UHGV virus genome: UHGV-0262927
Reading direction: 5' to 3' (one strand)
DNA: 24,255 bases
Origin: a virus
The first letter of the stretch is position 1, and each line of letters starts with the position of its first letter. Shown one piece after another: positions 9,462 through 14,939 of the stretch. The notes below the pieces were generated by a model, which worked only from the letters and a program-made list of their open reading frames with translations, was not told where the DNA came from and ran no database searches. A program made the translations under genes and the position numbers.

Positions 9462-9680
9462 TTATGCAGCGTTCTGGCGTGAGTTTCGAATAGTCGTCTC
9501 AATCCATTCATCAATCTCACTTTCGACAAAGGCGACACATCTTGGCTCTATTTTTACTCTGTCTGGAAAGTTTCCTTCCTTAATACGTTCATATAAAGTC
9601 GTGCGACTAAATCCCACTCGATTTAAAACATCAGGAACGCGGATAAATCGTTTTACGCTGGTTTCACTATTTTCTTTCAT
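9462..9680 (-). CDS. alpA: AlpA-family phage/island transcriptional regulator (72 aa)
   Basis: Characteristic sequence ...IRVPDVLNRVGFSRTTLYERIKEGNFPDRVKIEPRCVAFVESEIDEWI... matching the AlpA pattern as I recall it. Confidence 0.8.
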   Translation of the reverse strand: MKENSETSVKRFIRVPDVLNRVGFSRTTLYERIKEGNFPDRVKIEPRCVAFVESEIDEWIETTIRNSRQNAA

Positions 9681-9895: not shown

Positions 9896-10789
9896 TTATT
9901 TTTTCTTATTCCTGTCGTCTTCTACATGCTTTTCAACAGGGGAGTCTTTCAAGTGGTTGTTTTCCATCATGTAATCTTCAAGCGACTTCAGATAGCTCGC
10001 ATCCGTCAGAAAAGCCATTGCTAACGGGTAATCTGTAGCCTTGAGCATTCCTTCATCACGATCGTTGTCGCTGTCCTCGTGAAGCAGCGAGGAAATCAGT
10101 GAAAGCGGGATTTTAATGCCGTTATCTTCTCCCCAGAAGATCAGGTCCATCATCGGGATAAGATGATATTCAATAATTTTTCTGAACGTGCTTTTGCCGA
10201 AACGATACTCTCTTGGAGCTGGAGACGTCATCTTAAGCTGCCTCTTCCATTGAGGGATCAGCACTTTCAGATGTTCAATGATCTCTTCGGTTGATGCTTC
10301 TTCCAGATGAATATCGACAGTAATACGTGAAAGATTATTAAGGGATGTCTCTTTTAGATACTCGGACAGAAATTCGGATTCACTTAACGCGGAAAGCTCA
10401 GGCGTGGCTTCGGTTAATGCCAGCGTTTTCGCATAAAATTGCGCGTGGCGTCGTGTCGTAGGATTTACCGCGTAGGTTCTGGCAAGCTCATGTCCAAGGG
10501 TAGCGGTATCACCACTGAAAAAGATTTCACCGCTGAGGATCTTGTTGCGGTAATCATCCAGCATTAATCGGTTAAAGGTAGGTATGGTGTTCCGGCTCAA
10601 CAACATTCTGTAAGCCAAGATGCGCCGCTCAACCTCAACATAAAACTGCTGTAAGGAGAGTTTCTCTATCGCCTCATAGCGTTCAACATTAAACCATGCT
10701 TCCAGTGCTTTCCTGATTTCACTTCTTTTCATCCATCCTCCAACAACCCATTTCCTTTGATATATCTTCACAGGATCCGTTTGGAACAA
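9896..10789 (-). CDS. hypothetical protein (297 aa), upstream of alpA
   Basis: ORF in track with moderate GC; not integrase-like by eye. Confidence 0.5.
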   Translation of the reverse strand: MFQTDPVKIYQRKWVVGGWMKRSEIRKALEAWFNVERYEAIEKLSLQQFYVEVERRILAYRMLLSRNTIPTFNRLMLDDYRNKILSGEIFFSGDTATLGHELARTYAVNPTTRRHAQFYAKTLALTEATPELSALSESEFLSEYLKETSLNNLSRITVDIHLEEASTEEIIEHLKVLIPQWKRQLKMTSPAPREYRFGKSTFRKIIEYHLIPMMDLIFWGEDNGIKIPLSLISSLLHEDSDNDRDEGMLKATDYPLAMAFLTDASYLKSLEDYMMENNHLKDSPVEKHVEDDRNKKK

Positions 10790-11010: not shown

Positions 11011-11072
11011 TGGCGGAGAGAGGGGGATTTGAACCCCCGGTGGAGTTGCCCCCACTCCGGTTTTCGAGACCG
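11011..11072 (-). tRNA. Truncated tRNA-Ser(CGA) 3' segment (anticodon stem to CCA, ~62 nt); att-site direct repeat, not a functional gene
   Basis: Minus-strand reading GGTCTCGAAAACCGGAGTGGGGGCAACTCCACCGGGGGTTCAAATCCCCCTCTCTCCGCCA shows anticodon loop CUCGAAA, long variable arm, T-arm GGGGG-TTCAAAT-CCCCC and acceptor 3' strand with CCA; no D-arm or 5' acceptor strand upstream. Confidence 0.8.
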
Positions 11073-11563
11073 ATGATACAGAGTCGAAAAATCAAAGAGT
11101 TAAAAATTTTTCTTGGAATAAATGTCTTAAAATCGTACACGAAAAATCAATAAATTACATAACATTAAAGAAGAATATTCCAAGCCTTCTTGAGGCCACC
11201 ACCTGTTTTCAGGTGTCATTCAGATGTGATTTACCCCAGATTGGGAAAGCACGCTTTTTTTTTCTCAGCTTATTCCGTTTTGCCTGTGTGTTGAATAATT
11301 CCACTGCAGTTATATAAAATCGGTAACGGCTGGAAATCATTCAATACTCGCACTATCGAAAGTTCACCAGCCAACCGCAGCACGTCCTGCATACGTCGTG
11401 TCTGCGGTTTTTCTTTTTCGCTTACATTGTGTCTGGTTCTTCCAGCCACTCAATATCAGGTGCAGTTGATGTATCAACACGGTTCAGCAACACCCGATAC
11501 TTTTTCCAGGCTTCCAGCAACGGGGTTTCTTCCTCCGCCGTTGCATATACAGCTCACCTTTTT

Positions 11564-11857
11564 TCACCCACGATTAACCAACAGCCAGACCAGCAGACAC
11601 GCCACCACCGGCACAGCAAAATCCATCAGGCTTGCCACATCCCACGCGCGCGGATCAAAACCGCCCCACCACGGCATATTCATACGCTTGCCATGCACGA
11701 ACATTTCAATCCAGCGATATTCTGCCTGGGTGTGTTCACGCGCAATGAAGAACGTACAACCGGCTATCGCCCCGTAAGCCCAGTTTCCGGTAAAAAGACC
11801 AGCCAGTACCTGCACCGCTACGGCACAAAGCGCATGAAGTATCGACGTGATATCCAT
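11564..11857 (-). CDS. small membrane protein (97 aa, two predicted hydrophobic helices); prophage terminal cargo
   Basis: Hydrophobic stretches ILHALCAVAVQVLAGLF and FAVPVVACLLVWLLV; the overlapping 352-aa plus ORF is judged an artefact. Confidence 0.45.
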   Translation of the reverse strand: MDITSILHALCAVAVQVLAGLFTGNWAYGAIAGCTFFIAREHTQAEYRWIEMFVHGKRMNMPWWGGFDPRAWDVASLMDFAVPVVACLLVWLLVNRG

Positions 11858-11866
11858 CTGCTATCC

Positions 11867-12145
11867 TTAAAACCACTCCCTGAGCGGGCGCTCTGGTGTA
11901 ACCACCCACTCACGGAACACGGAATCATCAAATCCATCGTCAAGAAGACGGATATTAACAAAGTACCCTTCGTCTCGCGTGTATTCTGGTTCTCCGTCAT
12001 CAGGAACATCTGTCTCCCTGAACGTAAAACCAATCTCATCAACCAGAACGGCATTCTGCAGCTCTTCGTCCTCTTCCCAGTTAAGTTTCCTGAGAAATGC
12101 CCTGAAATCTGCTTTATCACTGAAACGCAACGTGAAATCTCTCAC
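11867..12145 (-). CDS. small highly acidic protein (92 aa); prophage terminal cargo
   Basis: About 25 of 92 residues are Asp/Glu by count of the translation; directly downstream of the tail-fibre gene. Confidence 0.5.
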   Translation of the reverse strand: MRDFTLRFSDKADFRAFLRKLNWEEDEELQNAVLVDEIGFTFRETDVPDDGEPEYTRDEGYFVNIRLLDDGFDDSVFREWVVTPERPLREWF

Positions 12146-14214
12146 TCCACAACCTCCCCAAGCTGCGCATCTGTTAGCTCTTTATGCCAGAGACGAAAAT
12201 TCCTCACATGCCCAAATAAATGGCGTAATCCTGCTGTAGTTTGTCCACCAATGCGAATGGTTGCTGTACTCCGGATATATTCCCATTTGGTTTTAGTTTC
12301 GCTGCTTAACTTACCGTTACTGACTACACATGTGGACCGTTCGGACTTTACCCGCATACCAATAAGCATTTTTTCCAGCCCGGCATTTTCATTTATTCGT
12401 CGGTTTGAACCACCTATATCACAATACGGAAAACCGTCGTACCCACCTGATGAACCAAACCCCATTACGATCCCCGCATCTGCCTGATGCCGGTATGTGT
12501 CAAAAACACGCGGTGCTGCATTTGGCGTTTTATACCAGTTCTTATGTACCTCACAAAGAACCGTAAAAGGAAGATTATAAAGATTATTCTTAATCGGAAC
12601 TGTAACCATATCGCTTGCCCGCGTTACCGGTGCCGTCCCCGTAACAATAAAAGATGATGCGCCTGTACCAGCCTCAATCTGTGGAGTGGTTACATCGAGA
12701 TAATCCCCTGATGCAACCATCTGCCCTGTATCCGGAGAATACTGGACAAAACCACCAACCGTATTTTCTGTTGTATCTGCTTTTAATGTAGCCTCAAAAA
12801 ATATCCAGCCAGTTGCATCATCCTTAACAGACCTTGCTGTAACACGGCTTGTCTGACCTGTCTTGCTAATTATGCGGGTGGTAAGGTTCAGGTTTGCTGC
12901 TCCTATTGATGTCCTTACCTCCCCATCATAATGTTCAAATAAAATACGAACGGCGATATTATCAACTTCACTTTTTACCCGACAGGATATAGTTACATGC
13001 TTTTCGTCCCCTGAAGTATCAACCCCTCCGGTACTCGAATACAGTCCGATAATGGTATGCGCTTTACTTGTACCAACAATCGAATCCTGTACGACAAACC
13101 GGCCATAATTAAACCCGAAACTATCTGTGCCTGTTTCTGTAACGTCCAGTGAAGTTGACTTATTCCACTTCGAAGGGTCTGTACTGTTCTGGAAGAAGTT
13201 CGTTCTTTGTCCCTCAATAAGCAGGCCATCACACTCAAATCGCGGCTCATTAATTTCCGCCGTTTTCAGTTCGCCAGATTTGTTGATATATGTTGCCGTT
13301 GATGCGCGACTGAAATTAACCTGTTTATCACTGGCAACCTGAACCACATTATCGCCAATCTTCACTTTTTTATAACCCGGAGAATAGCCCGTAATCATAT
13401 CCAGCGAATCATTAAAGGGTATCCACACATCCGGCAGCGGCTGTAAAACATATCTGTACGGCTCTGCTGTCTGGTTTGCGTATTCTCTGGCAGCATCTTC
13501 ACTTGCTTTTGCTGCCGTCTGGCTTGCTGCCGATGCTTTCGCCGAGTTCGCCGCCGCTGTTTCGCTCACCTTTGCGTTGGCTTCACTGTCTTTGGCATTC
13601 GTCTCACTGGTTTTCGCTGCCGTCTGGCTGGATTTTGCGTTTTTTTCGCTGGCCTTTGTGGCTGTCTCGCTATTTTTCGCGTTGGTTTCTGATTTTTTGG
13701 CTGCTGTCGCGGAGTTTGCCGATGCAGTCTGCGAGGCCGCTGCCGCCTGTGCGCTGTTAGCTGCATTCGTTTCTGAGGTTTTCGCCGCATTCTTCGATGA
13801 GGCTGCTGCCGTTTCGGATTTCTTTGCCGCCGCTGCACTCTGTGATGACGCTCCGGCATGACGTGCCACTTCATTCACCATCAGCTCAAAACGGCGCAGT
13901 GCCTCCGGACGGGCATCATCCTCCGTCATGGCACCGAGAAAATCATTCAGCGTACCTGGTCTGGAACCTTCATAGACGGTAATGGTCCCGGCATGTGAAG
14001 GTGGAAAACCTTCAACCAGCAGGGTGACGCTGTACTGGCCATACTCAACATCCATGCTGTAACGCCCGGCTTCATCCGGATTTTCAGAGGCCACCGTGTT
14101 CACCAGTACCGTGGTGCTGTTACGCTTTGCCTTCAGTTGAATAGTGCAGTTCTGTATTGGTTTTCCCGCACCATCTTTCAGCACACCTGAGATTTTTACT
14201 GCTGCCATATCCAC
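12142..14214 (-). CDS. stf: Side tail fibre protein, lambda Stf-like N-terminus (690 aa)
   Basis: N-terminus MAAVKISGVLKDGAGKPIQNCTIQLKA resembles lambda-family tail-fibre N-termini as I recall them; long Ala/Ser/Thr/Lys-rich repeat tract (KxSETNA-like units). Confidence 0.8.
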   Translation of the reverse strand: MDMAAVKISGVLKDGAGKPIQNCTIQLKAKRNSTTVLVNTVASENPDEAGRYSMDVEYGQYSVTLLVEGFPPSHAGTITVYEGSRPGTLNDFLGAMTEDDARPEALRRFELMVNEVARHAGASSQSAAAAKKSETAAASSKNAAKTSETNAANSAQAAAASQTASANSATAAKKSETNAKNSETATKASEKNAKSSQTAAKTSETNAKDSEANAKVSETAAANSAKASAASQTAAKASEDAAREYANQTAEPYRYVLQPLPDVWIPFNDSLDMITGYSPGYKKVKIGDNVVQVASDKQVNFSRASTATYINKSGELKTAEINEPRFECDGLLIEGQRTNFFQNSTDPSKWNKSTSLDVTETGTDSFGFNYGRFVVQDSIVGTSKAHTIIGLYSSTGGVDTSGDEKHVTISCRVKSEVDNIAVRILFEHYDGEVRTSIGAANLNLTTRIISKTGQTSRVTARSVKDDATGWIFFEATLKADTTENTVGGFVQYSPDTGQMVASGDYLDVTTPQIEAGTGASSFIVTGTAPVTRASDMVTVPIKNNLYNLPFTVLCEVHKNWYKTPNAAPRVFDTYRHQADAGIVMGFGSSGGYDGFPYCDIGGSNRRINENAGLEKMLIGMRVKSERSTCVVSNGKLSSETKTKWEYIRSTATIRIGGQTTAGLRHLFGHVRNFRLWHKELTDAQLGEVVE
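13480..13860. repeat. In-gene imperfect tandem repeats encoding the low-complexity tract of the tail fibre
   Basis: Periodic DNA pattern generating overlapping artefactual ORFs on both strands (13476-13760, 13577-13861, 13566-13874). Confidence 0.5.
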
Positions 14215-14220
14215 TCCACA

Positions 14221-14245
14221 AAAAAGCCCGCCTGAACCGGCGGGC
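14221..14245 (-). terminator. Rho-independent terminator downstream of lom
   Basis: Minus strand: GCCCGCC-ggttca-GGCGGGC followed by TTTTT. Confidence 0.6.
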
Positions 14246-14272
14246 TGTCATAACACTGTGTTACCTGGCTAA

Positions 14273-14895: not shown

Positions 14896-14920
14896 TAAAA
14901 AAGGCGCCATTTCTGGCGCC
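14896..14920 (-). terminator. Rho-independent terminator downstream of J and upstream of lom
   Basis: Minus strand: GGCGCC-agaaat-GGCGCC followed by TTTTTTAT. Confidence 0.6.
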
Positions 14921-14939
14921 CGTATTGGGGTTATAAAAT

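Follow-up and report, generated by a model that had tools for sequence, protein, structure and literature searches.

A small acidic protein encoded directly behind LamG-like phage fibre ends is a candidate fibre-tip partner

ORF92 and the end of the side tail fibre gene

The virus genome UHGV-0262927, whose full 24,255 nucleotides were analysed and are called the window here, carries a small open reading frame (ORF), ORF92, directly behind the side tail fibre gene stf. The product is a highly acidic protein of the uncharacterised family phrog_1361, and the best reading of our data is that it belongs to a new family of fibre-tip partner, either a chaperone or an accessory subunit, for the LamG-like domain in which the fibre ends. 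The features at this junction are as follows.

11867..12145, minus strand: ORF92, GTG start, 92 codons plus stop, uncharacterised family phrog_1361
12142..12145, minus strand: GTGA start/stop overlap, formed by the GTG of ORF92 and the TGA stop of stf, which have bases in common
12153..12159, minus strand: Shine-Dalgarno sequence GGGGAGG, 7 nt upstream of the GTG and within the 3' end of stf, read from the sequence
12142..14214, minus strand: stf (side tail fibre), 690 aa, with a PF08400 N-terminal anchor, an Ala/Ser/Thr-rich repeat shaft and a C-terminal sugar-binding-type domain
12616..13221, minus strand: GTA_spike_fiber domain (NF048003) of stf, residues 332-533, E=4e-19
12145..12564, minus strand: LamG / concanavalin-A-like end of stf, closing with the family-wide signature ...GGQTxxGxRHLFGHVRNFRLWHKELTDAQL

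ORF92 is a real gene and not a chance ORF, as judged from its match to phrog_1361, its homologues in Escherichia coli and in phages, the ratio of non-synonymous to synonymous substitution rates against close alleles (dN/dS ~0.36) and a confidently predicted fold. The match to phrog_1361 spans residues 1-92 (E=1.4e-40; annotated 'unknown function' in PHROGs), and the family motifs DLYLKF...IDxIG...GWHVNxR...PxxPxRVWA are all present, with phenylalanine replacing histidine at position 62 and alanine at position 92. Of 5426 complete E. coli genomes, 365 (~7%) carry near-identical copies in their prophages, every one labelled 'hypothetical protein'. ORF92 is thus a full-length member of an unannotated PHROG family, and the link of that family to a LamG-type fibre end is newly worked out here. 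Nothing significant was returned for ORF92 from Pfam, NCBIfam or PADLOC, the only Pfam matches at E<=0.1 being two of chance level, and there was no sequence match to the tail fibre assembly family PF02413 (Caudo_TAP). The literature searched, which covered LtfA/LtfB, BASEL I and II, LamG fibre chaperones and phage 21, describes no role for the small gene.

The protein contains 13 Asp and 12 Glu residues against 2 Lys and 10 Arg, giving an isoelectric point (pI) of 4.22 and a charge of about -13.5 at pH 7. The window has 127 stretches that run for 60 aa or more without a stop, and no other is as acidic. An original prediction for this locus, made from the letters of the sequence, had described a highly acidic 92-aa protein with roughly 25 Asp or Glu residues lying downstream of stf and before the prophage end; the count, the strong negative charge and the position all hold. 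The prediction gave no strand and missed the overlap of the ORF92 start with the stf stop codon. This GTGA overlap indicates that the two genes are translationally coupled, and a simple scan found neither promoter-like nor terminator-like sites at either junction of ORF92, with stf or with the gene that follows it.

The fibre itself ends in two recognisable parts. Its GTA_spike_fiber region is homologous to Rcc01080, the head spike fibre of the Rhodobacter capsulatus gene transfer agent (RcGTA; PDB 6tb9, E=5e-4). Residues 45-286 of the 325 in Rcc01080 align only to stf 301-548, and the last ~140 residues of stf therefore have no counterpart in that protein. The last 52 aa of stf match the C-terminal end of the Pfam family Laminin_G_3, of the concanavalin-A-like superfamily, at a sub-threshold E=0.003, and a 498-aa Laminin_G_3 protein encoded in a Mu-like prophage aligns over the distal 390 residues of the fibre (E=3e-23). 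No intramolecular chaperone domain (Peptidase_S74 / pfam13884) was found in the 690-aa stf with Pfam or NCBIfam. A C-terminal autocleaving chaperone domain of this kind within the fibre would make a separate chaperone unnecessary.

Association of the small gene with LamG-like fibre ends

The distribution of the pair was examined by tblastn against 50,697 phage records. Homologues of the small protein were found in 202 of these, and the fibre end, with the last 140 residues of stf as query, in 204; the two sets of carriers show a near-identical breakdown by genus and host. The small protein is present in lambdoid temperate phages (phage 21, mEp460, ev243 and many 'lambda-like' gut isolates) and likewise in strictly virulent ones, namely Drexlerviridae/T1-like phages (SECphi27), Queuovirinae (VogelGryff), T5-like phages (IrisVonRoten) and rV5-like myoviruses (nimi). 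In the phage records inspected the gene directly before the small one always encodes a lateral or side tail fibre, the two genes overlapping by 1 or 4 nt at stop and start, and the fibres upstream share the C-terminal signature ...GGQTxxGxRHLFGH[IV]RNFR[IV]WHKxLTDxQ.... Seven records labelled 'Campylobacter phage' (MG065635, MG065652-MG065655, MG065666 and MG065676) contain lateral fibre loci of rV5-like coliphages, 99-100% identical to those of Escherichia phages, and are probably mislabelled or contaminated.

We then gathered 250 loci from the window, the phage records, the viral contigs of IMG/VR and the species representatives of GTDB. This search ran on the narrower family alignments, the most diverse alignment having no conserved stretch. 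A long upstream ORF terminating at the start of the small gene was seen at 242 of 244 testable loci. After de-duplication 148 loci remained, and 146 of these combine the 1- or 4-nt overlap with the upstream C-terminal signature [RK][NDK][FLI][RK][IVLM]W; the two that fail are damaged genes, one carrying a frameshift (L089) and the other a deletion (L247). At one further IMG/VR contig (L074 / L198) there is no intact upstream ORF; an IS66-family transposase lies inside the side tail fibre gene, and of the LamG end just the final ~55 codons survive before an intact small ORF. The LamG-like end is thus the invariant neighbour of the small protein, in a near-absolute and reciprocal link that extends across unrelated phage groups. 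Among the 185,579 species-representative genomes the close family was confined to Escherichia, plus one misbinned metagenome-assembled genome. Three long, multi-stretch matches from the search of the representatives (P0046, P0052 and P0067) proved to be repeat proteins and were discarded as spurious. A search for Rosetta-stone fusions gave none; the longer family members (129-165 aa) merely have acidic loop insertions.

We also asked with which neighbour ORF92 evolves. Many lambdoid phages retain 92-96% DNA identity to the window over the region of the next gene downstream, ORF97, and this similarity ends exactly at the ORF92 stop codon. Spearman correlations of pairwise identity, calculated for 45 randomly subsampled loci of the 59 distinct lambdoid ones, were 0.89 between the small protein and the last 40 residues of the fibre, 0.80 for the fibre middle, 0.67 for the LamG body and 0.22 for ORF97. 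Because of this co-variation, and because of the DNA breakpoints between ORF92 and ORF97, we place ORF92 in the evolutionary unit of the fibre and not in the downstream accessory region. The co-variation supports a link between fibre and ORF92 but stops short of proving an interaction, since adjacency adds to the correlations.

Distant relatives from metagenomes and from other Enterobacteriaceae were obtained by profile search. In prophages of Leclercia and Atlantibacter a 498-aa stand-alone Laminin_G_3 protein and its small partner lie between baseplate genes resembling gp43 and gp44 of Mu; these Mu-like prophages have their own fibre elsewhere, together with a genuine Caudo_TAP chaperone that serves this different fibre. 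In environmental sipho- and podovirus contigs, stand-alone proteins of 411-625 aa with a small partner occur within head-gene modules. All 8 upstream proteins tested, in addition to stf, passed the curated cut-off of NF048003. The pairing is therefore seen in four unrelated settings: lambdoid stf genes, the lateral fibres of virulent phages, the Mu-like baseplate region and head modules. Two of the head-module GTA_spike_fiber/LamG proteins (L253 938-2251 and L259 2430-3728) start with MSFGFGFSLP..., resembling the hydrophobic-Gly repeat of Rcc01080. In RcGTA it is this repeat by which Rcc01080 binds its pentameric base (PMC7296036), and the analogy suggests that the stand-alone proteins of the head modules may be head fibres.

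At 114 of the 250 loci (89+25, not de-duplicated) a distal fibre-like gene begins 7-13 nt past the small ORF, for example at L002 4267-5433, L003 5289-7013 and L006 4286-4993, with 111 more loci of this kind. These genes are of two N-terminal types, MAKTITNIPKDITNLKNGKLDKSANLSDL... and MANRKDSITLTTAEISDLGTAAKKDVG.... No distal fibre gene was present in lambdoid loci such as this window, in Mu-like loci or in head-module loci. One virulent phage with the pair, IrisVonRoten, has been modelled in the BASEL II study, in which the distal T-shaped fibre Gp24 attaches to the proximal fibre Gp22 with its protruding galectin-like C-terminal domain (PMC11990801). That text names the proximal fibre Gp22 once and Gp23 elsewhere. 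In the same phage bas32_0023 is a 92-aa homologue of ORF92 that bears the RefSeq label 'tail fiber protein'.

Predicted fold, conservation and candidate roles

An AlphaFold model built with 5 near-identical sequences reached a predicted local distance difference test score (pLDDT) of 59 and was set aside. The model used here was built from an alignment of 85 sequences (pLDDT 89.7, predicted template modelling score 0.78) and describes a small alpha/beta sandwich with the order b1(2-8) a1(11-20) a2(27-32) b2(33-39) b3(42-45) b4(54-57) b5(61-67) a3(74-80), followed by an extended tail. A Foldseek search of the whole PDB with this model gave nothing below E=0.03, the predicted viral structures in BFVD yielded uncharacterised phage proteins only, and a sequence-profile search of the PDB returned no match. 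The predicted fold is therefore neither that of a known DNA mimic nor that of a known fibre chaperone.

Conservation is highest at D3, L6, F8, L18, D36, G39, G60, H/F62, V63, N64, R66, P84, P87, R89, W91 and A/F92, which map to b1, b2, b5 and the extreme C-terminus, where the tail motif is PxxPxR(V/E)W(A/F). Together they form a mixed hydrophobic/polar core and a Pro/Arg/Trp tail. Of the 25 acidic positions in ORF92, only D3, D10, D36 and E59 carry Asp or Glu in 60% or more of the 85 members, the remainder falling in variable and often gapped loops; acidity is nevertheless a family-wide property of composition (pI 4.05-5.6, median net charge about -10 to -11). Over their last 60 residues the partner fibres have a median pI of 10.5, and this basic end gives a modest hint that fibre and acidic small protein complement each other in charge.

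Since ORF92 is always encoded right behind the LamG-like tip and translated with it, it most likely helps this tip to fold, assemble or function. The proposal can be set out as a portable two-gene module. Its first gene would end in a GTA-head-spike-fibre-type domain followed by a LamG-like carbohydrate-binding domain, corresponding here to the distal 390 residues of stf, and its second would be the small acidic protein. ORF92 would be produced late, from the fibre transcript, and probably translated by re-initiation at the GTGA overlap, and would thus be made beside the nascent fibre C-terminus. It would then most likely bind the C-terminal domain of the fibre as a dedicated folding and assembly factor, in the place that Tfa takes in lambda, and might remain bound as a small accessory subunit. 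We infer both the binding to the LamG-like domain and the chaperone activity itself. The original prediction had named a chaperone role as its alternative, on the ground that no tail fibre assembly gene of typical size lies downstream of stf. There is indeed no intact tfa in the window, only a 3' remnant of one, and from this remnant it follows that a cassette of the stf C-terminal end, ORF92 and ORF97 occupies the slot of the stf C-terminal end and tfa in lambda. The evidence favours the chaperone alternative, but ORF92 falls in none of the known chaperone families, having neither a Caudo_TAP match nor a structural one.

We give about an even chance to ORF92 being a dedicated folding or assembly factor for the LamG-like tip, in the role of the missing tfa. 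Three considerations weigh on the other side. Plain physical adjacency would equally yield tight linkage and co-variation. The stand-alone LamG proteins may, by analogy with RcGTA, be monomeric, in which case the classical role of registering a trimer would not be the universal function. Finally, about half of the loci have a distal fibre gene after the small ORF, which is compatible with an adaptor role too. The main rival takes up this last point and makes the small protein an accessory structural component or an adaptor, one that would remain in the virion on the LamG-like tip and there dock the distal fibre or modulate or extend receptor binding. The linkage evidence suits it equally well, and the distal fibre-like genes that follow so closely downstream, the modelled attachment of IrisVonRoten Gp24 to Gp22 (PMC11990801) and the strictly conserved, extended C-terminal tail PxxPxRVWA, which resembles a docking peptide, all speak for it. 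However, the lambdoid, Mu-like and head-module loci lack a distal fibre gene, so docking of a second fibre is not the common function, and the literature searched offers neither virion proteomics nor cryo-electron microscopy density for the small protein; we consider this rival possible but rather unlikely. A wider proposal can be put forward only tentatively, namely that the small acidic proteins are a new and structurally unrelated class of obligate partner for concanavalin-A/LamG-type receptor-binding domains, carried in a portable two-gene host-range cassette of side and lateral fibres, baseplates and head fibres, and retained in the virion tip rather than acting solely as a transient chaperone.

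Two further explanations were weighed. In one, the small protein transiently occupies or shields the carbohydrate-binding, and possibly glycan-cleaving, site in the producing cell or at release, which would keep progeny from being trapped on the glycans of the cell that made them. This masking role is purely speculative and has no precedent known to us among phage fibres, and conservation in the partner domain lies in its last beta-strand and not in the hypervariable loops that putatively bind glycans; we regard it as improbable. The other is the headline of the original prediction, in which ORF92 is non-essential cargo beside the attachment (att) site, its acidity serving to mimic DNA and so to inhibit restriction or other defences that bind nucleic acids. 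Like mimics of the Ocr, ArdA and Arn type, ORF92 combines small size with strong acidity (pI 4.2, net charge about -13); the whole family is acidic, and in this prophage ORF92 is located between the tail genes and the prophage end; moreover, the folds of known mimics are diverse, and a mismatch in fold is not fatal to the idea. Yet ORF92 is coupled to a late structural gene and had no promoter of its own in our scan, whereas anti-restriction mimics are early genes that act at entry. In every genome examined it is tied to a structural gene, and to one type of fibre domain, with which its record count is near 1:1; the tie to the domain extends to Mu-like baseplate operons, to head modules and to virulent phages, in which the gene is no less conserved although they have no att site or moron region. 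Foldseek comparison of the ORF92 model gave no significant match to Ocr, to ArdA or to any other solved protein, PADLOC and Pfam were equally silent, and the alignment revealed no conserved carboxylate array, with 4 of the 25 acidic positions conserved as acidic. Taken with the co-variation with the fibre, these results leave the anti-defence claim unsupported, and we hold it to be very improbable.

The folding-factor reading can be set beside three known systems. Lambda Tfa, Mu U and P2 G (PF02413) resemble ORF92 in lying directly 3' of the fibre gene, in co-varying with its C-terminal receptor-binding end and in occupying the same genomic slot. They differ from it in having no sequence similarity, in length (about 175-195 aa against 92 aa) and in predicted fold, and the partner of ORF92 is a LamG-like domain and not a Tfa-dependent fibre tip. 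T4 gp57A and gp38 are small proteins dedicated to fibre maturation, and those of the gp38 type can remain at the tip; neither gave a sequence or structural match to ORF92 in the PDB profile and Foldseek searches. Of these two proteins, gp57A forms an all-alpha coiled coil, and gp38 exceeds ORF92 in size. The RcGTA head spike is related through the partner domain, stf being homologous to Rcc01080 there and the stand-alone relatives in head modules sharing a similar hydrophobic-Gly start, but no small downstream partner has been described for Rcc01080. Rcc01079 was considered as a counterpart of ORF92 and rejected, since its gene lies upstream of the fibre gene and its product is a base protein with a jelly-roll fold (PMC7296036).

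Lateral and side fibres with LamG-like tips are the O-antigen and glycan-recognition devices of many coliphages, including phage 21 and T5-like, T1-like, Queuovirinae and rV5-like phages, and such phages serve in therapy and make up part of the BASEL reference collection. If ORF92 is needed to make or operate the tip, swaps of receptor-binding domains between phages must include the small gene, and structural models of these fibres that omit it are incomplete. The present link gives a conserved family of 'hypothetical proteins' a testable function, and a false lead is removed in that an anti-restriction DNA mimic is now unlikely. The family is conserved, easy to test and of practical relevance; its biochemical role is one that we infer.

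Downstream genes and flanking sequences

The remaining features near the pair are listed here.

14902-14921 (after J) and 14225-14246 (after lom), minus strand: terminator-like GC hairpins with T-runs, from a simple scan
11564..11857, minus strand: ORF97, a 97-aa membrane protein with two transmembrane domains, phrog_1443, beginning 10 nt past ORF92
11423-11536 (approximate), minus strand: 3'-terminal remnant of a lambda-type tfa, seen in translation, which in a 97.5% identical genome the Prokaryotic Genome Annotation Pipeline calls a pseudogene lacking its N-terminal part

Because the two terminator-like hairpins precede stf, ORF92 and ORF97, expression of these genes would depend on either anti-terminated late transcription or an unrecognised promoter. 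The two transmembrane domains of ORF97 are taken from the annotation of the phage 21 record. This gene is the next one after the small ORF in 123 of the 250 collected loci (not de-duplicated), in the lambdoid prophage setting; it is far more conserved than the pair formed by the stf C-terminal end and ORF92 and evolves independently of it. ORF97 could be a moron or an exclusion protein.

A match to Rfam IS009 at 11465-11566 overlaps the tfa remnant and is sub-threshold (68 bits against a gathering score of 117). Further on, positions 11011-11065 hold a fragment resembling the 3' end of a tRNA or tmRNA, which is probably the prophage att core; ARAGORN found no whole tRNA in the window. To the left of this putative core a second integrative island encodes a regulator of the AlpA type (9462-9680) and a DUF6387 protein (9896-10789), and in the 97.5% identical genome (H122/L256) the same island runs on into H-NS-like genes.
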